Assembly (NCBI GenBank): GCA_000004695.1
Contig: CM000151.3
Location: 3,616,001-3,680,000 of the forward strand
Direction: 5' to 3'
DNA from: Dictyostelium discoideum
Taxonomy: Eukaryota
Length of the DNA stretch: 64,000 nucleotides
Shown: positions 1 through 30,423 of the stretch, in pieces
How positions within the stretch are numbered: the first letter of the stretch is position 1
How the letters are laid out: every line of letters begins with the position of its first letter
The notes under the pieces: model-generated
Database searches by the model: none
What the model saw: only the letters and a program-made list of their open reading frames with translations
What the model was told of the DNA's origin: nothing
Program-made: the position numbers and the translations under genes

Positions 1-717
1 TTGTCTATTTGAATATTTAAATTTCGATTATTAAAGGTCAATAAACCAAAATTGTTTGGCGAATATGTGGGTTTTAAAAATGATGCTTTTAAAGAATAGT
101 TTGAATTTTGACCACTTTCAAACCCAAATGGCCAACTAAAGATATATTGAAAACCTAAATTCCATCTAAAATAAAATGAAAATGTTTCATACTGGGTATT
201 TGAATTGAATCCAAATGAAAACATTGTTGAGTTTAATGTTAAAGGTACTGATATTGGTTCAACAATGACATTTGGAAATGTAAAATTAAAATTATCTATT
301 CATTTTTTTAAAAAAAAAAATTAAAATAATGTCAATAGAAATTAATCTTTGATATATGTATATATTAAAAAGTAATTAAATTTAATTTTAACAAACTTAC
401 TAAAAACATTTAAATTTGGATCACTATAAATTGTTGTTAATGAGTTATTAATTTTTGCGAAAATAGAATATTGTGTATGAACTTGGCCAATGAATGTTGT
501 ACCTTTTCCTGGTATTTCATATGATGGAGTTGGAATATTATTTGTAATATCTTCAATAAATAATGGATCATATTCAATGGTTTCATTTAATGTAATAGAG
601 TAAACTGGTGAACAATTAATTCCAAATTCTTTAACATCAGTTTGGTTTGGGTAGATCTTAAATGTAATATCCTTTTCTTCTACATTCATTTCTTAAAATA
701 ATAATAATTTTAATATC

Positions 718-748
<31 letters not shown>

Positions 749-1105
749 ATTATTATACTTACTTGAAAAATATAAAAAAGGAATTGTAATATTTACAGTA
801 TATTGTTGATCTGAACTATCCAAGAATCTTATTGATATATTAAACTCTGATATTAAATTATTTTTATCAAATCCTACACCAACAAAGAATAAATTTGAAT
901 ATCCCTCTAAGCTCATTGCAACATTTGAAGGACTTGAAACATTTAGCAAATTTAGTGGATATTTTAAACCTGCAAAGTGTATTGTTGCTGTATAAGGAAA
1001 AAGTGTAAATTTATAATTGTTACTTGTTAAAACATTGACCTTCATCAATTCTCGAGGGATATCTATAAAATTGATATTAAAGTTAATTATTTTTTTTTTT
1101 TTTTT

Positions 1106-1150
<45 letters not shown>

Positions 1151-1571
1151 GTTTTATATACAAACATTCACAAGAATAAGTTATTGAGATATTTTTATAA
1201 ATAATTTGATCATTTTGCAATGTTGCATTTATTAATAATGTATAAGTATTTGGTGTTTTATTTTTAACTATAACTGTGGCAATTCCTCCATATTCTTTCT
1301 TATTGATTAGAGAGACTGTTGCATCTGTGTCATTGGTGAAAACCATCAAATTTGTTCCACTATTCGAGTAATCAACTATTGCAATCGAAAAAACATATGA
1401 ACAAATTTTTTGATTTGTTGAATCTGGGTATCTATTATAAGCACCTTCTTCTTGATTTGTAATATCATACAATTGAAACTGTCCTTCAACCCCAATTATT
1501 AAATTATTTATTGTTGAAAAGCTATTTATTATCGCCAATGTTAGGATTATCAATAAAATTTTCTTTATCAT
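1..1571 (-). CDS. Paralog 0 (5' part only; exon 5 lies left of the window) of the tandemly repeated large type-I membrane glycoprotein gene (Tgr/LagC-like, hypothesis). Exons about 1166..1571, 763..1062, 401..691 and 1..295.
   Basis: Signal peptide MIKKILLIILTLAIINSF starts at the ATG at 1571. Each exon ends in a GTAAGT-type donor one base past a codon (phase 1) and resumes after an (A/T)AG acceptor with the frame conserved. Bases 1-300 are near-identical to 5459-5760, which is exon 4 of paralog 1. The protein is collinear with paralogs 1 and 2. Confidence 0.5.
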
Positions 1572-1737
1572 TTTTTTTTTTTGTTTATTTAAACTTGCAA
1601 TAAGTTTTTTTTTTTTTATTAAAACAACAAAAAAAAAAAAAAAAAACTTGCCCTTTAGCAAACATTTTTTTTTATTTTTGCTTTTTTTTTTTTTTTTACG
1701 ATTTGCTGAGCTAATAAAAGATATTTAAAAAAAGATA

Positions 1738-1770
<33 letters not shown>

Positions 1771-2472
1771 AAATAAAAAACAAAAAAAAAATTTTGAAAT
1801 TCTAAGGGGCAAACAGAAAAAAAAAAAAAAAAAAAGACACAAAATTTCTTTTCGCTTTTATTACCAAACAAATTGGTGTCGTTTTGTTAAAAAAAAAAAA
1901 AAAAAAACAAAATATTGATGATTGTTTTTTATATATATTTTATAAGGCGGTTGTAAAAATTTTTGCATTAAAGTGTTCCTCTTTTTTTTTATTTTTTTTT
2001 TTTACTTTTATTTTTTTTATTTTCTGTGTAACTCCCCTTATTATTTTATCTTTTATTATTATTGTTATTTTTAAAAAAACAACATTCATCTAAATGATTG
2101 GTTCATTTTACTTGTTTTTTATTTTTTTTTTGGTTTTTTTTTTTCTTTTTACCAAATAATTGGTTTTTTGGTGTTGTTGATGAAATCAATTGCTTTTTCT
2201 TTCTACTAATCTTGATCCATTTTTTTGTTCTATCTCAAGCTAATTGATTATATAATTAATGGTGATTTTGTCTTTTTTTTTTTTTTTTAAAGATTAATTT
2301 AAAAAATAATAAAAAAAAAAAAATTAAAATTTTTTTTATATATACTTTTTTTTTCGAATTAAAAGTCCTGTTTTTATTTGTTTTTATCTTTTATTTTTTA
2401 TTTTTTATTTTTATTTTTTTTCCAAGATTTATAATTTAAATATTAGAATTAAATTAACTGATTAAGTAATTA

Positions 2473-5400
2473 TCAGTTAATTGTTTGTAATTTCTTTTGT
2501 ACTTTTCTTTGGAATTTTTTTGATTTTCTGTTTTTCACAACCAAGTAAACAACTGATACAATAACTACAGTGGCAAAAGCAATAGAACCAATAATAATAC
2601 CAGCGAGTTGAGCACTTGTTAGTTTTGATTTATTTGATGTACAAATTGAATTATTATCATTATTTGATACTGGTTTACTATCTACTAATACTGAAAAGTC
2701 TGGATCAATAATTATTGATTGTTTATAGTTTGGTATTGTAATACCAATGAATGATTGTGATACTGATGATGTTTGAATTGAGTTCATTTTTGAATCTAAT
2801 AATTGATTTTCAATTGAAGACACTTTTGAATCGATGATTGCTCTTTTAATGAATCTACCATAAAGTGAATGATCATCAATTTGAATTTTAAAGAAGTTTG
2901 AATTATCACCATCGCTTGTATCTCCAAATACTTTTAATGAACAAGTATCTTTGGAAGTTGATGATTCGAATAATGCTGACATTACAAGTTGAAGACTATT
3001 TAATTGTTTTAAAAATTTATATTCTGTAATTTCAATTGTATATTTAATACTTGATGGATTCATTGTTATATTATTATTTGCGAATTGAATAATTGTCGTT
3101 TGATTGAACCATTCTAAAGTTACAGTAATATTGGTTGTTAATGTATTTGTTGATTTTGTATCACCACTTTGAATACTTGTAAAGTATTGACTTTTAATAT
3201 TATTAATTGGTGTATAAATCCATTTATCAAATGTATATAAATTAACTTGATTTGAATTAAAATCTAATTCTCTTAATGATACAATTGAAATCAATGATTT
3301 GAATAAATAATTTGTACTATTTGATGTTTGATTATTGTTATCGATAATTGGTAATTCAGTTGATGGTTGTGATGTATTTGTTGATGGTTGTGGTATAATT
3401 ATAACTTGTGAATTACAATCATTACCAATCCAAGGTGGATAACAAATACATCCACTTGATGAACAAAAACCTTGTTTTGATCCACCACATACTGGTTCAC
3501 CTAAACATGTTTGTGGTTTATTCGTTGGCATTGGTGATGATGTAGGTATTGGTGTTTGTGTTGGTGTTGGATCTATAAAATTATAAACTATTGGATTGAC
3601 AGTGAATTCATTTGATGTGAGTGGTAGGTCTGAAACTTTGATAATGAATGGTTTATCGGTTGGTTTAATATTTTTAATAAAAATTGCACTCCAATAAACT
3701 GTAGTTGGTACTATTTGATTAAAGCTTGAGTCTCCTTCATATTTTACATATACTTGTTGCGTTGAATTGAAACATCTACCTGTTATCCATAACTCGCTAT
3801 CAAATGAATTAAATTTACTGCATTTTGTGATTTGTATTACTTTATTAAAAGTTATATTATTAATTGTATATATAAAAGATAAATTATTTAGTGATTCGCT
3901 TGAATATCCGCTATAATAACCGCCATTATTAATGAATCCATAAACACTGAAAATAATATCTGAATTGTATCCAAATCCTATTGGTAAATCGATAGTACAT
4001 GTATAGGTTGCAGCTGTTTCGTTTATTGAAATAATAGATGATACACATTCAAGTGTTTGTACTTCTATTGTTTCAATATAAACAACTGGATATTGTTTAT
4101 CTTTTAAACCACTTTCAATATCTACTGCTTCAAAGTTGAATGATAAGTATTGAGTACCATCACTATTTTGTTTTAATATTGGTATGAATGAAGTTAAAAT
4201 TGGTGGTGAACTATCGATACCATCATTTTCACCACTACATGTTTTATATACTTTATTTATTGTTGGATCTGATAAATAATTTATAAATACATTTTTAATA
4301 CCATCCATTTCACCAACTACATAAAATTCACCTGAAAAGCCTTGAGTATCATATAATTTAACTTGTGTGATAATATAATTTTGAGATGCACATTTACTTG
4401 GTAAAGTTATATTAATTTGATAATCACCATTAAATTTATCACCTCTTGTTAAATTTTGAGTTGTTAAATGGAATTTATAAGTTGAACTATCCATTTCACC
4501 TCTCACTATAATATCACCATAATCAAAACCATTAATTGGATCATCTATTGTAAATTTCCAACCAAATTCATTTGGTGAATTAATTTTTTCAATATTACTA
4601 AATATTGGTCCATACGCATCGAAATGTTTAGAAACAATAAATAGTTGTGATGATAAAGGAAACATATCATTTGTTATTGAAGATTGATAACCACACATTA
4701 AAAAGAAACTGAGTGGACCAGGTCTAGTGTTTGCAAGAACTGTAAATTTAATTTGATATTTTGAAATTGTTGAATTCCAAGTTGCAAACTTTAAACTATC
4801 GAAAACTATATTAGATTCTGTGGTATTACTATTTAAAATAAAAAGTGAGAATGAAGCTGAAGGATCACTATGGGCTTGAGTACCATTATAATTGAAATAA
4901 ATTATATTATCAACTGATTTATTTGCCACATCAATATAATTTTTTAAAAATGTAATATTTTCTATTAAAACAGGTAATATTGTTGGAGCTTTATAATCTA
5001 TAACTGAAAATGGATTAATTGAAAAATAACTATTTACATAATAAACTTGACTCTTTTTAAAAGTTGAATCTCCAATAGATAAAACTGAAAATCCACGCCC
5101 TTTAAAATCATAAACAATTTCATATATATTATTTTCAGCATCTACCAATGATTCTTGTCTATATATTGCATTTGCATCATCATTAATTTGAATGAAAAGA
5201 TTATAACCAATCTCTTTATATGTTGGTTTTATTTTAATTATTAATAAATGAAATTGTTCAAAAAGGTATATAACTTTACATGATTCTAATTCTAATGGTA
5301 GTAATGATGAATTTATCGCTATTTTTAAAAATATTTTTTAATGTTAGTACTTGTTTGTGTGTGGGGTGTGTGTGTGTGTTATTCAGTAGTAGTTTAGAAT

Positions 5401-6976
5401 ATTAATGATTATATATGTATATTAGAATATTAATGATTATATGTATATATACTTACTATTGTCTATTTGAATAATAAAATTTTCATTATTAAAGGTCAAT
5501 AAACCAAAATTGTTTGGCGAATACGTGGGTTTTAAAAATGATACTTTTAAAGAATAGTTTGAATTTTGACCACTTTCAAACCCAAATGGCCAACTAAAGA
5601 TATATTGAAAACCTAAATTCCATCTAAAATAAAATGGAAAAATTGCATACTGAAAACTTGAAGTGAACCCAAATGAAAACATTGTTGAGTTTAATATTAA
5701 AGGTAATGATACTGGTTCAACAATGACATTTGGAAATGTAAAATTAAAGTTTTCTATTCATTTTTTTTTAAATAATGTCAATAGAAATTAATCTTTGATA
5801 TATGTATATATTAAAAAGTAATTGAATTTAATTTTAAAAAACTTACTTGAAACATTTAAATTTGGGTTACTATAAATTGTTGTTAATGAGTTATTAATTT
5901 GTGCGAAAATAGAATATTGTGTATAAACATAACCAATGAATGTTGTACCTTTTCCTGGTATTTCATATGATGGAGTAGGCATACGACGTGAAACATCTTC
6001 AATAAATAATGGATCATATTCAATGGTTTCATTTAATGTAATAGAGTAAACTGGTGAACAATTAACTCCAAGTACTGTAACATCGGTTTGGTTTGGATAG
6101 ATCTTGAATGTAATATCCTTTTCTTCTACATTCATTTCTTATAATAATAATAATTTTAATATCTTATTTTTTTTTTTTTAAATTTAATTATTATACTTAC
6201 TTGAAAAATAAAAAAAAGGAATTGTAATATTCACAGTATATTGTTGATCTGAACTATCCAAGAAAAGTATTGATATATTAGACTCTGGTACAAAATTATA
6301 TTTATTAAAATCTACACTAACATATAATAAATTTGAATAAAAATTATTTATGTTTATCCAAGAAGGACTTGAAACATTTAGATAAGATATTTGATATTTT
6401 AAACCTGTAAAGTGTATTAATGTTGTATAAGGATTAATTGTAAATTTATAATTGTTACTTGTTAAAACATTGACCTTCATCAATTCTCGAGGGATATCTA
6501 TATAAAATTGGTATTGAAATTAATTAATTATTTATTTTTGTTTTTTTAATTTTAAATTTTATATACAAACATTCACAAGAATAAGTTATTGAGATATTCT
6601 TATAAATATTTTGACCATTTTGCAATGTTGCATTTATTAATAATGTATAAGTATTTGGTGTTTTATTTTTAACTATAACTGTGGCAATTCCTCCATATTC
6701 TTTCCTAATGATTTGATAGACCATTGCATCTGTATCATTGGTGAAAACATTCAAAGTTGCCCCACTATTCGAGTAATCAACTATTGCAATCGAAAAAACA
6801 TATGAACAAATTTTTTGATTTGTTGAATCTGGGTATCTATTATAAGCACCTTCTTCTTGATTTGTAATATCATACAATTGAAACTGTCCTTCAACCCCAA
6901 TTATTAAATTATTTATTGTTGAAAAGCTATTTATTATCACCAATGTTAGGATTATTAATAAAATTTTCTTTATCAT
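2473..6976 (-). CDS. Paralog 1, complete: 5-exon gene for a type-I membrane glycoprotein of about 1380 aa with signal peptide, N-glycan-rich ectodomain, PT-rich linker, EGF-like Cys module, TM and short basic tail (Tgr/LagC-like, hypothesis). Exons about 6571..6976, 6201..6497, 5847..6137, 5457..5753 and 2473..5318.
   Basis: The ORF-track entries 6524..6976, 6184..6483, 5788..6135, 5437..5682 and 2473..5148 join in frame through GTAAGT/GTTTGT donors and TAG/AAG acceptors with phase 1 throughout. The four introns are 70-140 nt and AT-rich; intron 4 carries a (GT)n tract. The C-terminus is ...CLGEPVCGGSKQGFCSSSGCICYPPWIGNDC (EGF-like), then a TM (LAGIIIGSIAFATVVIVSVVYLVV) and the tail KNRKSKKFQRKVQKKLQTIN. 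Confidence 0.6.
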
Positions 6977-7205
6977 TTTTTTTTTTTAAAAAAAAAAATA
7001 AAAAAAAAAAAAAAAAAAACGTTCCCCATTTTTTTTTTTACGATTTGATAAAGATATTTATAAAAAGATATTTATAAAAAGATATTTTAAAAAAAAAATT
7101 AAAAAAAATATTTTTTGAATTTCAAGACTACCTCACAACAAAATTTCATTGTTTTTATTTTTTATTTCTTTTTTTTGATCCCAACAAACACATTATAAAT
7201 GGTAC

Positions 7206-7252
<47 letters not shown>
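7206..7252. repeat. (AAT)n microsatellite, about 16 units
   Basis: A perfect AAT/ATA trinucleotide run, read directly. Confidence 0.9.
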
Positions 7253-7253
<1 letters not shown>

Positions 7254-7774
7254 TGTTTAATTTATTTAATTTCTAATACTAACATAAAATTTGTTTGGTA
7301 GAGTTGGATCTGGAATAAAATCATTTATGTTTTATTTGTTGAAGATTTTGTTTATTTAGTCCAAAATACCTTGTTTAGTTGTTATAAATCCATTAGCTTG
7401 AAGACTTGGCATAATATGACTTGTGTTTGGATTTTGTTGTATTAGTTGTGAATTCATCAGATTGAAGACTTGGCATAATATGATTTGTGTTTGGATTTTG
7501 TTGTTGTATTAGTTGTTGTTGTGCTTGTATTAGTTTTTGTTGTGTTCCTAATGTTGCTAGTAGTTGTTTGCATTGACATTGTTCTTTTTTAGGTTGATTA
7601 CAACCTCTACAAATGTATACCATTTTTTGTTTAGTAATAATTTAGCCAAATAAAAAAATAAAAAAATATAATAAAAAAAATCAAAAAAAAAAATTTTGGT
7701 TATTGAATTTTCTATTGTGCCTTTTTTTAATAATTAATTTTGAAAAATTTTAGTAAAATATATTTTTTAAAAAA

Positions 7775-7808
<34 letters not shown>

Positions 7809-8282
7809 AAACAAAGAAAAAAAATAAAAAAATTTAAAAAAAAAAATAATATAATATAAAAAAATATAAAGCAGTTATTCATTTTTAATTAAATTACCAA
7901 ATAAAGAGTTTTAATTTAAAGGATTAAACAAAAATCAATCAATAGGTTTATTTAAATGTAAAGTAGTTATATTTATATTATCAAATAAAGAATTTTAATT
8001 TTAAAGTAATAAACAATAAACAATAAACAATAAAAAATAATAAATATGTTTATTTATTTTAATTTTAAAATGCACAATAAATTTCTTTATTTAATTTAAA
8101 TTATGGAACAATGAATTTTAATTTATAAAAAAAAAAAAAAAAAAAAAAAATCACCAATACACAGAGAATAATAAAATAAAATTATTTGTTGATATTATAA
8201 TAAAAATGATAAAAAATATTAAATTAATTTTAAATATTAATATCTTTTTTTTCATTATTATTTTCCTTTGTTATATAAAGGA

Positions 8283-8636
8283 ATTTCCTTTATAAGTGAT
8301 TCGCTTGAATATCCGCTATAATAACCGCCATAGTCAATATTGGTCCATATTCATTGAAATGTTTAGAAACAATTAATAGTTGTGATGATAAAGGAAACAT
8401 ATCATTTGTTATTGAAGATTGATAAGTACTAATTAAAAAGAAACTGAGTGGATCAGGTCTAGTATTTGTAAGAACTGTAAATTTAATTTGATTTTTTGAA
8501 ACTATTGAAATATATATTAGATCATATCTGTATTACTACTATTTAAAATAAAAAGTGAGAATGTAGCTGAAGATCACTGTGGCCTGAGTATCATTATAAT
8601 TGAAATAAATTATATTATCAACTCCTATTAAGATTT
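8283..8636 (-). pseudogene. Degenerate, internally deleted fragment of the large glycoprotein gene (matches paralog 1 around 3893-3930 joined to about 4600-4925)
   Basis: About 85-90% nucleotide identity to two non-adjacent segments of exon 5. It contains indels and frame breaks and has no flanking exons. Confidence 0.55.
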
Positions 8637-8882
8637 AAAAATAAAAAATTTAATATTTAAAAAAAAAAAAAAATATTTTCAAATAATTTTTTTTTTTTTT
8701 TTTTTTAAATCCATAATTTTAAAAATATTTTGACACATACACCATATCGATGAATCATTACATCAAAATACCTTAGTAAGTTTTTTTTATTTTTTTATTT
8801 TTTCAATTTGTTTAAATAATTAATTTTTATTAATTATATATATATACTCAAAATGATAAATTTTATTTAATTTTTAAAAATA

Positions 8883-9275
8883 TTTCATCACCAAATAGAC
8901 AAGAAAGATATGAAGCAGTTAAATGTGTTAGAGAAATTTTATCTGATGGTAAGTTTTTTATTTTTATTTTTTTTTTTTTTTAATTGACTTTTTTTTTTTT
9001 AAATTGACTTTTTTTTTTTAAATGACTTTTTTTTTTTTTTTTTTATTATTTATTATAAAAAAAAGATAATAATCCACAAATTGATAGAGTTATTAGTTCA
9101 GGGTTAGTACTAATTTTACATAGATATTTAGTTGATGAAACAGATACTTCAATTCAATACGAAGCATCATGGGCATTAACAAATGTTGCATCAGGATCTT
9201 CAAAACATACAAATTATATTGTAGGGAATGAAATTCATAATTCTGTATTAAGTAAGGCAATTGCAGAGTTGAGGC
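8883..9275 (+). pseudogene. Importin-alpha (karyopherin alpha) pseudogene fragment covering ARM repeats 1-2, in inverted orientation relative to the rest of the gene
   Basis: The + strand translates to ...ISSPNRQERYEAVKCVREILSDG, then GTAAGT, then ...KDNNPQIDRVISSGLVLILHRYLVDETDTSIQYEASWALTNVASGSSKHTNYIVGNEIHNSVLSKAIAEL. This is the canonical importin-alpha ARM2 motif (FEAAWALTNIASG...). The last 28 bp (9248-9275) recur inverted at 10020-10047. Confidence 0.55.
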
Positions 9276-10050
9276 ACCACAGATAGCCTTAGCAATAGCG
9301 CAGGTGGCTTCAAGTTTTGTTCTTAAATTGATCGATGAGTTTTTACCGGTTTCAATAGCTCTTTTAAGCAAACATTCGTCTATGACTCTTTGGACTTGAT
9401 CTGTTGGACCATTGGTAATATATAATAAAAAATAATAACCTCACGTCACCAATGCTTCTGATGGTGATGATAAGATTTTAGGAAACACTTTCAATACATT
9501 ACATTGTAACAAATACTCTATAACGTCATAGAAACCTGAAAGCATATTACCAATTGTATTGAATCCGTATTTAATACAATCTTTTTGATCTGATTCGAAA
9601 ATGATTTCAATGATAACCTCAACCAATCCCATAGATATAATATTGTCAAAGATCTCATGCTCTTCATTGGTTGATTCGGTCAAGCATGATAATGCCCACA
9701 ATGCTTCTGATATGACATCAGCTTCTTTATGCCAAGTTAAGAGCAACTCTTTATTGATGGTAATAGTGGCTTAACGAGTCTAAATTCAGTACGTGGTACA
9801 CCACGACATAGATTTTTAATGACCCAAGCTACATTTGAAACTAGTGATTTCTTTGAATGAGTTTTCAATATTTCTATCAAATGTAATACTATACCTTAAT
9901 TGAGTACACTATCTCTATTTTGGAATGAATCACCAGTGATATTACCTAATGTCCAAATGTTTTGTTCTAAAAGATCAACATCATTACTAGTTGACATTAA
10001 ATCAATTATACTCTCAACTCTGCAATTGCCTTACTTAATACAGAACGATT
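9250..10050 (-). pseudogene. Importin-alpha pseudogene body (ARM3 to about ARM8) on the minus strand, with an in-frame TAA and frame shifts
   Basis: The minus strand reads ...NRSVLSKAIAEL / DLMSTSNDVDLLEQNIWTLGNITGDSFQNRDSVLN*GIVLHLIEILKTHSKKSLVSNVAWVIKNLCRGVPRTEFRLVKPLLPSIKELLLTWHKEADVISEALWALSCLTE...GFNTIGNMLSG...TNGPTDQVQRVIDECLL...KLEATCAIAKAI. This is collinear with importin-alpha (WALGNIAGD, TWTLSNLCRG, CWALSYL, RAIGNIVTG, KEATWTMSNITAG). It is interrupted by a TAA where a Tyr is expected and by frameshifts near 9441 and 9900. Confidence 0.5.
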
Positions 10051-10925
10051 GTCTTGAATGTTTGAAACAGAATTATTCAGCATCTAAAGCTCGAAAAAAT
10101 TCTTTTTATTACTATTTGGAGGGCATTGCCAAAATATTAAATATTGTCAAAAAACATACCAAAGAAACAAACTGTTTAAAACTTTTCAACACTTTTATCG
10201 ATGGTCAATTCTTTGATAATTTACTCGATGATTCCAATTCTTGTGAACGAGAATTTGTTGAAGGTTACTCAACAATCAGCGATGAATTTGATGAGTTGAC
10301 TCAAGTGGTTCAACAAATTGAACCTAAAAATTCAAAGGGTGAAGATGTAAATGAAGTTAATTGTGAAAAATCTGCTGAAAAAGCTTCTGATTATGAAGAT
10401 GATATTGCTAAATTATATGAAATGAAACTTAATGAATAAAAACAAAATAAAATAAAATAAAATAAAATAAATAAATTTCAATTGGAAGATTTTTTATTTC
10501 CAGTCTGTTAAACATGTTGAACTGTTAAAACTATTAAACCTGATAAACCTACCAAACGATCCTGTGCCAAAGATTGGAGAGAATATAAATCTATCTATAC
10601 ACTATGACATTAGGAATGGTTTAATATTTATTAACACTTCAACAACAATAAAAATAAAAAAATTTAAACATCATCATTTTTAAATATTGGAAAAATTTTA
10701 ATAATTTCAAATAAATAATAAATGTGTGGGTAAACCTAATTAATTTGTTTTTAATTTTTTTTTTGTTGAACCACTACAGTAGAAATTTTTTTTTTTACAT
10801 ATACATAAGAAAAGACAAATAAATAATAAGTAAATGCATAAAGAAATTTTTAAAAATTAATAAAAAAAATAATAATTTTTATTTTCCAAGATTTTTAATT
10901 AGAATATTTGAATTAAATTAACTGA

Positions 10926-13900
10926 TCAGTTCATTTTTTGTAATTTGTTTTGTACTTTTCTTTGGAATAAATCTGATTTTCTGTTTTTCACGACCAAGTA
11001 AACAACTGATACAATAACTACAGTGGCAAAAGCAACGGAACCAATAATAATACCAGCGAGTTGAGCACTTGTTAGTTTTGATTTATTTGATGTACAAATT
11101 GAATTATTATCATTATTTGATACTGGTTTACTATCTACTAATACTGAAAAGTCTGGATCAATAATTATTGATTGTTTATAATTTGGTATTGTAATACCAA
11201 TGAATGATTGTGATACTGATGATGTTTGAATTGAGTTCATTTTTGAATCTAATAATTGATTTTCAATTGAAGATACTTTTGAATCGATGATTGCTCTTTT
11301 AATGAATCTACCATAAAGTGAATGGTCATCAATTTGAATTTTAAAGAAGTTTGAATTATCACCATCACTTGTATCTCCAAATTCTTTTAATGAACAAGTA
11401 TCTTTGGAATTTGATGATTCGAATAATGCTGACATTACAAGTTGAAGACTATTTAATTGATTTAAAAATTTATATTCTGTAATTTCAATTGTATATTTAA
11501 TACTTGATGGATTCATTGTTATATTATTATTTGCAAATTGAATGATTGTCGTTTGATTGAACCATTCTAAAGTTACAGTAATATTAGTTGTTAATGTATT
11601 TGTTGATTTTGTATCACCACTTTGAATACTTGTAAAGTATTGACTTTTAATATTATTAATTGGTGTATAAATCCATTTATCAAATGTATATAAATTAACT
11701 TGATTTGAATTAAAATCTAATTCTCTTAATGATACAATTGAAATCAATGATTTGAATAAATAATTTGTACTATTTGATGTTTGATTATTGTTTTCTATAA
11801 TTGGTAATTCAGTTGATGGTTGTGATGTATTTGTTGATGGTTGTGGTATAATTATAACTTGTGAATTACAATCATTACCAATCCAAGGTGGATAACAAAT
11901 ACATCCACTTGATGAACAAAAACCTTGTTTTGATCCACCACATACTGGTTCACCTAAACATGTTTGTGGTTTATTCGTTGGTATTGGTGATGATGTAGGT
12001 ATTGGTGTTTGTGTTGGTGTCTCTGTTGGTGTTTCTGTTGGTGTTTCTGTTGGTGTTTCTGTTGGTGTTAAGGGAATCGTAAAATTATAAACTATAGGAA
12101 TAACAGTGAATTCATTTGATGTGAGTGGATAGTCCGAAACTTTGATAATGAATGGTTTATCAGTTGGTTTAATATTTTTAATAAACATTGCACTCCAATA
12201 AACTTTATTTGGTACTATTATTTGATTAAATCCAGGTTCTCCAAAATATTTTACATATACTTGTTGTTTTGTTGAATTGAAACCTCTACCTGTTATCCAT
12301 AACTCGCTATCACCAGATACAAATTTGCTACAGGTATTAATTTGTATTACTTTGTTTATGGATATATCGCTCATTGAATATATAAAAGATAAACTATTTA
12401 GTGATTCGCTTGAATATCCGCTATAATAACCGCCATTATTAATGAATCCATAAACACTGAAAATAATATCTGAATTGTATCCGAATCCATTTGGTAAATT
12501 GATAGTGCATTTATAGGTTGAAGTTGTTTCATTTATTGAAATAATAGATGATACACATTCAAGTGTTCTTAAATCTGTTGTTTGGATATAAACAATTGGA
12601 TATTGTTTATCTTTTAAACCACTTTCAATATCTACTGCTTCAAAGTTGAATGATAAGTATTGAGTACCATCACTATTTTGTTTTAATATTGGTATGAATG
12701 AAGTTAAAATTGGTGGTGAACTATCGATACCATCATTTTCACCACTACATGTTTTATATACTTTATTTATTGTTGGATCTGATAAATAATTTATAAATAC
12801 ATTTCTAATACCATTAAATCCACTGGATACTGAAAATTCACCTAAATAACCTTGAGTATCATATAATTTAACTTGTGTGATAATATAATTTTGAGATGCA
12901 CATTTACTTGGTAAAGTTATATTAATTTGATAATCACCATTAAATTTATCACCTCTTGTTAAATTTTGAGTTGTTAAATGGAATTTATAAGTTGAACTAT
13001 CCATTTCACCTCTAACTATAATATCAGCATAATCAAAACCATTAATTGGATCATCTATTGTAAATTTCCAACCAAATTCATTTGTTGAATTAACTTTTTC
13101 AATATTACTAAATATTGGTCCATATTCATCGAAATGTTTAGATTCAATAATTAATTGAGAAGATAAAGGTAAGAAATCACTTATTAATGAACTTGAATAA
13201 CCACAAAGTAAAGCAAAACCAAGTGGACCAGGTCTAGTATTTGCAGGAACTGTAAATTTAATTTGATATTTTGAAATTGTTGAATTCCAAATTGAAGTTG
13301 TAATATTATCATAATCTACGACTCCAGTTACTTTAAACTCATGAGATAAAATTAAAAATGAGAAATTAATTGTATCATCTTTAGGTTCTTGAGTACCATT
13401 ATAATTGAAATAAATTATATTATCAACTGATTTATTTGTTACATCAATGTTATTTATTAAATAAGTTACATTACCAATTAAAACTGAAATCATATCAGAA
13501 TATTTAAAATCAAGTTTTAAAAGTGGATCAATTGAATAATATTGAAATGGATTATAAAATTGAGATTGTCTTGAATAAGAATCACCAATATTTAAACTAT
13601 TTAATATACCTTCATGAAAATTTAAAACAGTTTCATATATATTGTTTTCGATATCAGGCATTGAGTCATATCTTAATACTTGATTAACATTATCATTAAT
13701 TTTAATAAAAGTACTGTACCCTTTACTTTGATAAATTGGTTTTATTTTAATCTTAAATAAATAAACTTGATTATATAAATGAGTAGAATTAAATGATTCT
13801 AATTCTAATATTGGTAATGTATTTATATCCACAACTATTATTTATAATAAAATTATTTTAATTAATATAATAATTTTATTAAATAATAATAAAAAATAAA

Positions 13901-15044
13901 AAAAAACAATTACCTTGTTGATTACTAATTTGCGTTAAAGAATGATCTTGATTGAAATAAAGTGAGTTGTAGGGATTTACAGAGATTTCAGATTGTAGAA
14001 ATGATGACTTGAATGAATAATTTGAATTATGACCACTTTCGAAACCAAAAGGCCATTTATAACTATTTGAAAAACTTTCAAACCATCTAATTGAATAATT
14101 GAATAAATCAAATTTTTTAGTTGAATTAAATTTAATTGAAAATATTGATGAAAGTGAAGGTAATGGTGGTGAATAATCAATTTGAAAAGATGGAAATTTT
14201 CTATCAATATTATCTATATATTTAAAAAACAATAATAATAATATTATTAAAATTATTAACAAAAATGATTTTTTAAAATAATAAAAATAAACAATAATAA
14301 AAAAAAATAATAATAATAATAATAAACTTACATGAGACCTTTAAAAATTGATAATAAATTGTAGTTAAGGTGCCATTAATTTGAGCACCAATTGAATAAT
14401 CGGAAGAAACTTGACCAAGGAATGTTGTACCTTTTCCTGGCATTTCATAAGATGCCCATGGATTTAAACCTATATTTTCATTAATAAACAATGGGTCGCT
14501 TAATCCAATTGTTTCATTTAATGTAATAGAATAAATTGGTGGACAAATAAATCCAAATTCTATAACATTTGTTTGATTAGGATAAATTTTAAATGTAATA
14601 TCCTTTTCTTTTACATTTGAATCTGAATTTTTAAAATTATAATTTAATATATTAATTTTTAAAATAATAATAATAATAAAAACAATAATAATAATAACAA
14701 TAATTACTTACTTGAATAAATTAAACTTGGAATTGTATAATTTAATGAATAAGTATTATTTGAACTATCCATGAACCATAGTGATATATTAAAATCTGGT
14801 TTAATAAATCCATTAAATTCGTCACCAATATGATAGACAAATGGCCTTATATTATCAACTTTTACATTATACGGTTTGTCAACTTGTAATTGACCCAATG
14901 GGTATTTTAATCCTGTAATGTACATTATTGTTGAAAATGGGTAAATTGGATGCTTATATTTACCAGTATGATATAAATTTATTTTCATTGATTCTCGTGG
15001 AATATCTATTTAATTTATTTAATTATTTAATTAATTATTTATTT

Positions 15045-15103
<59 letters not shown>

Positions 15104-15521
15104 CTTAAAAAAATAATCAATACAAACATTGACAAGAATAATTAATTATAATACTACTATAAATTGATGTATCATTATCATATTCTGCCGTAATTAATAA
15201 TGAATAATCATTTGGTGATTTAGTATTTACATAAATTGGAAGAACTTGACTTGAAATATTTTTAAATGCTGGTGTTGAAATTGTTGCGTCTGAATCGTTG
15301 GTTTTTATTTTTAATTGAACTCCAGTATCTGAAGTATCGGTTACAAATATTAAGAAAAAAAAATTACAATATTTGTCATTTGTATTTGTTGGATATTTAT
15401 TATATGAGTATTCTTCACTAGAAACATCATAAATTTGAATTGCTGGATTTCCTTCAACCCTAAAAATTTGTAATATTACTATTATTATTAGAATTAATAA
15501 TAGTATTCGTTTTCTGATCAT
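10926..15521 (-). CDS. Paralog 2, complete: 5-exon type-I membrane glycoprotein gene of about 1400 aa. It is the most divergent N-terminus of the three, and its PT-rich stalk is expanded to PTETPTETPTETPTETPTQTP. Exons about 15128..15521, 14712..15005, 14332..14623, 13916..14213 and 10926..13834.
   Basis: Signal peptide MIRKRILLLILIIIVILQIF. Exon junctions: ...caacaag|GTAATTG...aataatag|TTGTGGAT (in frame), ...tctcat|GTAAGT, ...ttcaa|GTAAGT. The start of the 'ORF' 10926..13832 is a GTG artefact of the ORF caller. The 3' 1.1 kb is about 97% identical to paralog 1 (2473-3600). Confidence 0.6.
12013..12066 (-). repeat. 12-bp coding minisatellite (GGTGTTTCTGTT)n, encoding (PTET)n in paralog 2; the paralog-1 equivalent has a single PTPTQTP
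   Basis: Four to five tandem 12-mers, read directly. There is a length difference between paralogs at the homologous position. Confidence 0.8.
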
Positions 15522-23321: not shown

Positions 23322-23957
23322 CTAGTTTTTTTTTTTTTTTATTAATTCTATTATTGATTTTTCTTCAAAATGTGGGCACATTGATTTCGGAGTTTGTAAA
23401 ATCTTGTCAAATTGACAGGAGGACCAATCTGATTGACAGTTTTCTTTACATAGAAAAAGTTTAACATCACCATTATTTGGATCACATAGAATTTTTTGGA
23501 AAGGATTTCCACTTTTATCATTGTTTATTGAACATGTTTCATTTTTATAAGTGATAATTAAAGCATGATCTTTACATTGTTTTTCTCTATTAATAATTTC
23601 ATTATCTAATAATTGAATTTCATTACAATATTCATGGTTATTACTTTTTGGTATTGATAATTGATGTTTATTTTCATGTAAAATAAAGTAAAATGAAATT
23701 TCACCTTCTGGAATACAAACATTTAATTCATTAGTATAAACTAAATTTTCATCAAATGTTTGAGTAATTATTTTATTTCCAGTTTTATTATTACATCCAA
23801 TTATTTCAACTTTTCCATTTCTTAAATCTTTATTATAAAATTTAATTGCTTCTGGTTTTCCTTCACAGTTTTTATTATCATATATAATTTCTACCAATTC
23901 AAGACAATTGATATTATTAAATAATATAAATAATAAAAATAAAATTATTAATTTCAT
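23322..23957 (-). CDS. Secreted cysteine-rich protein (signal peptide plus about 16 Cys), paralogous to the next gene
   Basis: MKLIILFLLFILFNNINC signal peptide. The mature N-terminus LELVEIIYDNKNCEGKPEAIKF parallels LEYIQAMYDNKDCKNTPISIQ of the 24497..25351 protein. Single exon. Confidence 0.5.
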   Translation of the reverse strand: MKLIILFLLFILFNNINCLELVEIIYDNKNCEGKPEAIKFYNKDLRNGKVEIIGCNNKTGNKIITQTFDENLVYTNELNVCIPEGEISFYFILHENKHQLSIPKSNNHEYCNEIQLLDNEIINREKQCKDHALIITYKNETCSINNDKSGNPFQKILCDPNNGDVKLFLCKENCQSDWSSCQFDKILQTPKSMCPHFEEKSIIELIKKKKN

Positions 23958-24156
23958 TTTATTATTAATATTTCTATTTTTAATATAAAAAATTAACAAA
24001 AAAAAAAAAAAATTATTATTCTATTGATAGAATAAAAAAAAAAAAAAAAAAAATAATAATAATATAGTTAGGGGGAGAGGGGGTATAATCAAAAAACTAA
24101 TTATAAATAACCACACCAATAAATAATTTTTATTAAAAAAATAAAAAATTATACAT

Positions 24157-24496: not shown

Positions 24497-25351
24497 TTAA
24501 AATAATATTAAAATTAATAATGATAAACTAATTAAAAGGAAGAAAGATACGTATATTTTTTGGGCATTGCTTTTGCCAGTAGTTGAGGCACCTCCACTAT
24601 TTCCTGCATTTGATGTAGCTCCACCATTTCCAGAAGCGGCTCCAGTTGCTCCACTACCACCAGTTGCTGAGGTACCATTATTTCCAGTACCACCACCACC
24701 AGTAGCACCAGAAGAAGAAGATGTACTTGAAGTATCAACTTTACCATCAATTTTAATTAAATCTTGAATATTTTTTGATTTAATATTTGGACAGGATGAA
24801 ATACTTTTTAATTCTTTATCAAATACACAACCACTGACCCCAGAAGCTTTACGGCAATCAGATGGGCAATTATAACGTTTTACAACATTTCCATTACAAA
24901 GATAACGATTGAAATAACCGTTTGATTGTGGACCAACACATGCACCATTTAAATAAGAATTTAATAAAATGTTTTCACAATCATCATCGGCAAATTGAAC
25001 CAATTCTGAACAGTATCCATTAATTCCTGAAACATTTGCATTTTCATTTAAAAACATTTGAGCCAATGAACCTGTTAAACAATAATTTACATCTTGATCA
25101 TATGCTGATGGAGTTTTTGAACTACAATCACTTGGTGATTTAATACCATATGAAATTGTTACTCTTTTACTTGATTGTGGTACAACATAAATTCCTTTTG
25201 CACATTGTGATGATGATTGAATTGAAATTGGTGTATTTTTACAATCTTTATTATCATACATTGCTTGAATATATTCTAATCCATTTACAACATTTTTAAA
25301 AATACAATAATTTATTACTGTAAATAATAATATAATTTTTAAAATTTTCAT
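24497..25351 (-). CDS. Secreted cysteine-rich protein with a Ser/Gly/Thr-rich linker and a C-terminal hydrophobic tail (probable GPI anchor); ponticulin-like/prespore-surface type (hypothesis)
   Basis: Signal peptide MKILKIILLFTVINYCIF, a Cys-rich core, ...TSSTSSSSGATGGGGTGNNGTSATGGSGATGAASGNGG..., then KIYVSFFLLISLSLLILILF* (a hydrophobic C-terminus with no basic stop-transfer, typical of a GPI signal). Confidence 0.5.
   Translation of the reverse strand: MKILKIILLFTVINYCIFKNVVNGLEYIQAMYDNKDCKNTPISIQSSSQCAKGIYVVPQSSKRVTISYGIKSPSDCSSKTPSAYDQDVNYCLTGSLAQMFLNENANVSGINGYCSELVQFADDDCENILLNSYLNGACVGPQSNGYFNRYLCNGNVVKRYNCPSDCRKASGVSGCVFDKELKSISSCPNIKSKNIQDLIKIDGKVDTSSTSSSSGATGGGGTGNNGTSATGGSGATGAASGNGGATSNAGNSGGASTTGKSNAQKIYVSFFLLISLSLLILILF

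Positions 25352-25807: not shown

Positions 25808-27317
<1,510 letters not shown>

Positions 27318-28878: not shown

Positions 28879-30423
<1,545 letters not shown>

Follow-up and report, generated by a model that had tools for sequence, protein, structure and literature searches.

Three tandem paralogous genes, here called A, B and C, occupy positions 1–15521 of the window, the 64,000-nucleotide stretch of Dictyostelium discoideum chromosome 2 analysed here (AX4/AX2; contig CM000151.3, positions 3,616,001 to 3,680,000, forward strand). Their identity as a cluster of ComC-like surface glycoprotein genes is well supported. The encoded proteins combine a fast-evolving outer part with a membrane-anchored C-terminal part that, judged from sequence comparison, is kept alike among the copies by gene conversion. 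By analogy with the one characterised relative, the family would consist of receptors at the cell surface for adhesion or recognition, most likely serving contact-dependent communication or adhesion between cells and not allorecognition tagging, a reading to which we give a probability of about 55%.

The three genes lie head-to-tail on the minus strand in a region of 16–30% G+C, and each comprises five exons (Table 1). All four introns per gene are of phase 1, exons 2–4 contain 97–100 codons, and the similarity between copies is far above chance (tblastn E = 0). The 430 spliced codons of gene A within the window correspond exactly to the N-terminus of XP_644341.1 (1380 amino acids, aa). All gene B introns are bounded by GT..AG, and the spliced product is letter-for-letter that of AX4 records XP_644342.2, EAL70417.2 and EAL71040.2. 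A chromosome-2 duplication has been described in AX4 (PMC12745789), and the two EAL accessions of gene B probably reflect it. These models and exact protein matches confirm the arrangement of three head-to-tail, minus-strand, five-exon copies put forward in the original prediction, which was made from the sequence alone. Annotations of genes A and B already exist, though neither gene is characterised, and their domain families are already in Pfam.

Gene order past the window was taken from an AX2-like assembly, 99.85% identical to the window. The order there is SRP14, C, an Arm-repeat fragment, B, A, a Dicty_CAD gene, D, a 367-aa gene and E (opposite strand), so that the cluster has five genes (C, B, A, D, E), of which only part falls in the window. 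The comparison extended to four other genomes from a 2025 long-read set (PMC12745789). Table 1 of that paper names, among others, AX2-214, D. citrinum, two tropical isolates of D. discoideum (CR116C and OT3A), and M4B and S6B, possible cryptic species. Gene C has an intact frame and is colinear, at 95% aa identity, with a 1384-aa orthologue, ACTFIW_011806; all genomes examined contain an orthologue of it. A 1395-aa gene is called at its position in the AX2-like assembly, and its product can also be spliced from locus L001. No AX4 protein record for gene C was returned in the homologue search, and its exact product is absent from a collection of 15 billion proteins; the AX4 reference may lack an annotation of the gene or list it as a pseudogene. 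A T56 homopolymer (15048..15103) lies in the first intron of gene C, which measures 122 nucleotides (nt) in the window vs 84 nt in the AX2-like assembly, a gap that is either a true length polymorphism or an assembly difference.

Assignment to the family follows from Pfam. DUF7035 (PF23034), DUF7034 (PF23033), DUF7949 (PF25820) and ComC_SSD (PF22933) are matched far above their cutoffs in the open reading frames (ORFs) of the window and in all five full-length members. The ComC_SSD domain, which adjoins the C-terminal transmembrane (TM) segment, scores 46–66 bits vs a cutoff of 24 bits and is covered over profile positions 6–222 of 222 in four of the five members, and over 32–222 in P0011 (gene D). 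DUF7949, the module ahead of the SSD, is matched with E ~1e-14 to 1e-15. The N-terminal DUF8390 (PF28405) comes from precomputed annotation only, on database homologues and on genes A and B of the AX2-like assembly. A HMMER search with the EGF+SSD+TM module (E <= 0.001) returned 956 representatives of 50%-identity clusters, mostly 1300–1420 aa long with the module at the C-terminus; those sampled come from Dictyostelium, Polysphondylium, Heterostelium and Tieghemostelium. The named homologues are all "EGF-like domain-containing" or hypothetical dictyostelid proteins. A profile search with the family alignment gave further members, none named comC, and a homologue search with the multi-EGF relative P0060 of D. 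purpureum returned only the query itself.

ComC, as namesake of the SSD, is the sole characterised protein linked to the family. Kibler and colleagues (2003) reportedly assigned comC, together with lagC and lagD, to a pathway of cell adhesion and communication. ComC is listed as a developmentally essential protein with a signal peptide, a TM segment and EGF domains (PMC4931340), and the comC mutant shows aberrant aggregation (PMC2873529). The window proteins match the full ComC_SSD profile above its gathering threshold and, like ComC, they have a signal peptide, a single TM segment, EGF-type cysteine modules and a distribution restricted to dictyostelids. Unlike ComC they carry a single EGF-like module; the D. 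purpureum relatives P0060 and P0061 have additional EGF-type Pfam matches, with an identity in the SSD region of only 25–28%. Within the limited open-access literature, no functional work on the family was found, nor any on its segmental concerted evolution.

Several database relatives (among P0098–P0102, P0107, P0096 and P0097) are 2400–3900 aa long, with two or three copies of the C-terminal module. These are probably mis-merged tandem genes, in which case D. firmibasis and Heterostelium would have tandem arrays too. A CBM49 carbohydrate-binding domain occurs in one relative (P0096), and ComC_SSD is paired with a TIG domain in one predicted protein.

The coding sequences of the cluster are mosaic. 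Protein identity between paralogs is 20–55% over the first ~600 residues vs 96–99% over the last ~300, the distant copies D and E included. In a codon alignment of A–E, the proportion of synonymous differences (pS) is 0.41–0.57 in the N-terminal 700 columns for all pairs except the recent A/B duplicates, and for the same pairs it is 0.035–0.06 in the C-terminal 320 columns (Fisher p 1e-25 to 1e-40). A second block of low pS (0.09–0.22, with flanks at ~0.5) coincides with DUF7035. The corresponding tracts of DNA identity between B and C, including the sequence past the stop codon, are given in Table 1. In a neighbour-joining tree of the last 1000 coding nt the copies cluster by genome, with groups formed by A, B, C, E and D of AX2, by C and B of ACTFIW and ACTFIR, by C and B of ACTFIZ, and by C, B and a third gene of D. 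citrinum. Over the same genomes, the N-terminal tree recovers orthologous C and B/A clades. Homogenisation is confined to the cluster, because unlinked family members are only ~50% identical in the SSD. Read from these comparisons, the 3' ends are in concerted evolution by segmental gene conversion, which has continued since these lineages split. Strong purifying selection alone was considered for the C-terminal identity and is ruled out, as synonymous sites are equally homogenised and the 3' tree is ordered by genome.

Divergence between isolates is of an ordinary level. Between AX4 and ACTFIW, pS and the proportion of nonsynonymous differences (pN) are 0.064 and 0.017 for gene C, and 0.085 and 0.036 for gene B. 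Three longer flanking control ORFs give pS of 0.075–0.090 and pN of 0.011–0.041. Divergence of B and C therefore matches the flanking ORFs and is at background level, without Tgr-like hyperpolymorphism; the latter had been suggested by the 95% aa identity of gene C to its ACTFIW orthologue and is ruled out by the equal divergence of the flanking ORFs. The label "polymorphic" applied in the original prediction does not hold at this level, whole-gene pN/pS being also below 1. Between orthologues, which persist to D. citrinum, pN/pS is 0.25–0.56 for whole genes, 0.1–0.25 in the SSD and ~0.3–1.1 in the modules of exons 1–4, with the B lineage highest. In the N-terminal part of the recent A/B duplicates, pN and pS are about equal. 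These ratios indicate that the stalk is strongly constrained and that change in the heads is relaxed or diversifying.

All three proteins share one layout, with a hydrophobic, signal-peptide-like N-terminus, 34–35 NxS/T sequons, one C-terminal TM segment and a 20-aa basic tail. These elements had been predicted, as had the Thr/Pro stalk and the 6-Cys EGF-like module, and all are present. The EGF-like module does not, however, adjoin the membrane as had been supposed, since ComC_SSD (~220 aa, within ~265 aa of sequence) intervenes between it and the TM segment. Exons 1–4 are the fastest-evolving part of gene B, with 38–54% aa identity to gene C. Comparison of the exon-sized N-terminal modules with hhalign gave no internal sequence repeats (probabilities <= 2%); the modules are alike in fold only. 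Relative to ACTFIW, gene C of the window has three additional TETP units (12 aa) in its (TETP)n linker, seen as an alignment gap, and the length of the mucin-like stalk is thus polymorphic. Ahead of the Thr/Pro linker, at about residues 921–1015 of gene B, lies a ~100-aa domain which is IPT-like by eye. Among 26 family sequences it gave sub-threshold TIG matches in two (best E 0.012) and an Ig_TgrO1 match in one (E 0.0032), a hint only of an IPT/TIG-like signal.

Predicted structures are in keeping with this layout. In AlphaFold2 (AF2) models, the exon-5 product of gene B (947 aa; predicted local distance difference test, pLDDT, 78.7) is all-beta except for the TM helix, and the first 686 residues (pLDDT 81.9; predicted template modelling score, pTM, 0.73) are all-beta. 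The structure matches of these models are Ig, cadherin and FN3 ectodomains. Neither Pfam nor the structure matches revealed a lectin or pattern-recognition domain in the heads, and sequence searches of the PDB gave only chance matches for the full protein (E ~0.9) and none for a profile of the IPT-like domain. The modelled architecture is that of an adhesion or recognition receptor whose stalk is a supersandwich, a fold common to the carbohydrate-binding domains of glycoside hydrolases and phosphorylases and to many unrelated enzymes.

The locus is syntenic among the genomes compared, while the number of B/A-type copies varies from one to three among isolates. After SRP14, AX4/AX2 has C, B and A, then Dicty_CAD, D and E. 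At the same place ACTFIW has C, B and B', followed by an A-type gene (ACTFIW_011809), and ACTFIR has C, B, two Dicty_CAD genes and, where the contig ends, one more partial member. The D. cf. discoideum genome ACTFIZ has C, B, a transposase insertion and another member, and D. citrinum has C, B, a 1438-aa gene without a Pfam record and two small genes, one of them Dicty_CAD. D. citrinum and the D. discoideum isolates share the order SRP14, C, B-type copies, Dicty_CAD genes. The small Dicty_CAD genes, one or two in number and of the DdCAD-1 calcium-dependent adhesion family, stand directly after the B/A-type copies (L001 20275..20666; L004 14805..15923; L006 19865..20242), and the surroundings of these copies are a conserved adhesion-gene neighbourhood.

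Gene D, outside the window and ~7 kb beyond its start (L003 19135..23963, minus strand), contains an in-frame TAA (DFNSN*VNLY) inside an otherwise 99%-conserved ComC_SSD region. The AX4 gene model (P0011, 1391 aa) skips 24 codons round this TAA, as if they were an intron; the gene is probably either recently disabled or encodes a truncated secreted product. Between B and C lies a decayed relic of the family (Table 1), in which a last-exon piece with 82% blastn identity to B 4601..4915 is joined directly to a 37-nt exact match from ~700 nt further downstream. The relic is absent from ACTFIW, where the gap between C and B is only 1.2 kb. G+C rises to ~0.29–0.32 in a patch at 9093..10439. Within it lie a fragment of an Armadillo-repeat ORF (9441..9746, Arm E 6e-7), which the AX2-like assembly annotates as a 158-aa gene, and a perfect 33-nt inverted repeat (9241..9273, 10013..10045) common to two opposite-strand ORFs. 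The patch is probably a gene fragment that was inserted along with the family relic.

Elsewhere in the window, two adjacent ORFs on the minus strand (23322..23999 and 24497..25351) encode Cys-rich products with a signal peptide and no Pfam match, and two tandem flavin amine-oxidase genes follow on the same strand (25808..27034 and 28879..30084). The remaining genes look like ordinary housekeeping ones, among them those for an SH3 protein, AP-3 beta, a kinase, a transketolase and a TerD-domain protein.

Table 1. Positions of the three genes, their encoded domains, the tracts compared between genes B and C, and the family relic (window coordinates).
Feature	Position	Strand	Details
Gene A, 5' part	1..1571	-	Exons 1571..1166, 1062..763, 691..401, 295..1; rest past window start
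Gene B, complete	2473..6976	-	Exons 6976..6571, 6497..6201, 6137..5847, 5753..5457, 5318..2473; 1378 aa
Gene B exons 1–4	5457..6976	-	Signal peptide and four exon-sized beta-sandwich modules, phase-1 introns flanking
DUF7035, gene B residues 663–792	4234..4623	-	Pfam E 1e-36
DUF7034, gene B residues 803–918	3856..4203	-	Pfam E 4e-27
Thr/Pro linker, gene B	3531..3570	-	6-nt tandem repeat (Tandem Repeats Finder) and translation
EGF-like 6-Cys module (DUF7949), gene B residues 1035–1069	3403..3507	-	Pfam E 7.5e-15
ComC_SSD supersandwich domain, gene B residues 1089–1308	2686..3345	-	Pfam
TM segment, gene B residues 1335–1358	2536..2607	-	Hydropathy; helix in AF2 model
Basic cytoplasmic tail, gene B	2476..2535	-	20 aa; stop codon 2473..2475
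B vs C DNA identity	B 5318-4625		60–77%
B vs C DNA identity	B 4624-4325		96–98%; partner C ~12830..13137; coincides with DUF7035
B vs C DNA identity	B 3481-2582		97–100%
B vs C DNA identity	Directly past stop codon		~50%
3' homogenised tract	B 2482..3481	-	93–100% DNA identity; partner C 10935..11934 (-)
Decayed family relic	8295..8623	-	Two non-adjacent last-exon pieces joined; stop codons in all three frames
Gene C, complete	10926..15521	-	Exons 15521..15128, 15005..14712, 14622..14332, 14213..13914, 13834..10926; 1395 aa
(TETP)n linker, gene C	12002..12069	-	12-nt tandem repeat, 5.7 copies (Tandem Repeats Finder)

In the arrangement that we propose, each protein begins with a signal peptide, after which about ten Ig-like beta-sandwich domains form a heavily N-glycosylated rod that includes the DUF8390 region, DUF7035, DUF7034 and one IPT-like domain. 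After the rod come the Thr/Pro mucin-like linker, the EGF-like module, the membrane-proximal ComC_SSD, the TM helix and the basic tail of 20 aa. As the comparisons show, the outer ~650 residues evolve fast and track orthology, and the EGF-SSD-TM-tail module, with DUF7035 to a lesser degree, is repeatedly overwritten among cluster members by gene conversion and held under purifying selection. Different ligand-binding heads would be presented on one common stalk and anchor, which may engage a shared partner in or at the membrane. A role in communication or adhesion is considered likeliest because ComC, which is developmentally essential and whose mutant aggregates aberrantly, gives its name to the shared SSD. 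Several points weigh against this account. The low pS of the 3' module proves homogenisation and is silent on why it is maintained, a head pN/pS near 1 fits relaxed constraint as well as diversifying selection, and the in-frame stop of gene D implies that at least some copies are dispensable. Moreover, the ligand and the shared membrane partner are purely inferred, and the link to ComC runs through a Pfam domain name and two literature tables.

The original prediction had put the genes forward as a candidate Tgr-like allorecognition cluster, whose polymorphic heads would serve as strain-specific self/non-self tags in the manner of TgrB1/TgrC1 (formerly LagB/LagC). Likenesses exist, both groups being dictyostelid type-I glycoproteins that are chains of Ig-fold domains with short tails, encoded by clustered genes with copy-number turnover. 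Here copy number varies among isolates, pN/pS of the N-terminal modules reaches ~1, and one domain gives the faint IPT/TIG-like signal mentioned above. However, TIG/IPT and E-set domains are what define the Tgr family (PMC12745789), and the Pfam search that had been proposed found no IPT/TIG (PF01833) match at E <= 1 in the five full-length members, whose significant matches are DUF7035, DUF7034, DUF7949 and ComC_SSD. Membership in that family is thereby largely overturned. The window proteins also differ in their length of ~1400 aa and in an isolate divergence equal to that of flanking ORFs (pS 0.06–0.085, pN 0.017–0.036), with clear one-to-one orthologues from D. discoideum isolates to D. 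citrinum. There is no adjacent ligand/receptor gene pair, as A, B and C (and likewise D) are paralogs of a single type, all head-to-tail. Tgr-like allorecognition is thus largely refuted and we regard it as quite improbable. More improbable still is the view that the copies are functionless, decaying duplicates. The relic between B and C, the in-frame stop of gene D and the missing AX4 protein record of gene C would agree with it, yet decay is refuted for A, B and C because their frames are intact and whole-gene pN/pS is below 1; their conserved GT..AG phase-1 introns, orthologues reaching to D. citrinum and still lower pN/pS in the SSD argue the same way.

Two further readings accept a functional surface protein and place its role elsewhere. 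The heads could bind bacteria, other prey, substrate or glycans during growth, and not take part in developmental signalling, so that the family would form an innate-immune-like or phagocytic/adhesion receptor repertoire. Such a repertoire would agree with a family that is large and diversifies fast by birth and death, as seen in its 956 representatives, copy-number variation, relic and disabled gene D, and also with head modules that evolve nearly neutrally, the occurrence of the supersandwich fold in carbohydrate-binding domains and the CBM49 of P0096. The heads nevertheless show no detectable lectin or pattern-recognition domain, and ComC, the sole named relative, has a developmental phenotype; this environmental role is possible, if on balance unlikely. 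Alternatively, the proteins could be accessory subunits, in which the SSD-TM module pairs with, protects or traffics a multi-pass membrane protein and the ectodomain acts as a glycan shield. A precedent is GLMP (NCU-G1), a type-I protein with heavy glycosylation that serves the lysosomal transporter MFSD1 as accessory subunit (PMC11252000, PMC6819133) and likewise has a luminal supersandwich directly ahead of a single TM helix, and the SSD-TM module is the most conserved and most homogenised part of the window proteins. The resemblance is structural only: sequence identity is 10%, no GLMP-family Pfam match occurs at E <= 1, and the fold is shared with many unrelated enzymes. GLMP also has no ~1000-aa Ig-like rod, mucin linker or EGF module, and a chaperone role needs no such rod of variable domains, which makes an accessory function improbable. 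A more far-reaching proposal is speculative and in our view doubtful. The cluster and the dictyostelid family of about a thousand members would then be an undescribed, diversified recognition-receptor system, whose fast-evolving Ig-like heads bind prey, pathogen, species or partner cues and whose C-terminal module is kept identical by gene conversion since all copies dock onto one multi-pass partner, as GLMP does on MFSD1.

The cluster invites comparison with the clustered protocadherins and other receptor clusters having a "variable head / constant tail". The comparison is one of analogy, without sequence homology. Unlike in the protocadherins, the constant part here is a separate copy in each gene, kept alike by gene conversion, and there is no splicing to shared constant exons.

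Social amoebae serve as a model of how multicellular adhesion and self-recognition arose. To our knowledge, few of their surface receptors have been studied, namely Tgr, CsaA, CadA, Sib and ComC. For this locus, the results mean that it comes off the list of allorecognition candidates, and that polymorphism calls made there from short reads would be confounded by gene conversion between paralogs. Genes A–C are members of a dictyostelid-specific family of surface proteins that is very large (956 representatives at 50% identity), and the opposition between fast heads and a conversion-homogenised stalk offers a testable idea of which part binds ligand and which couples to shared machinery. The main value of the cluster lies in this clean evolutionary split between head and stalk and in the size of the unstudied family to which it belongs.

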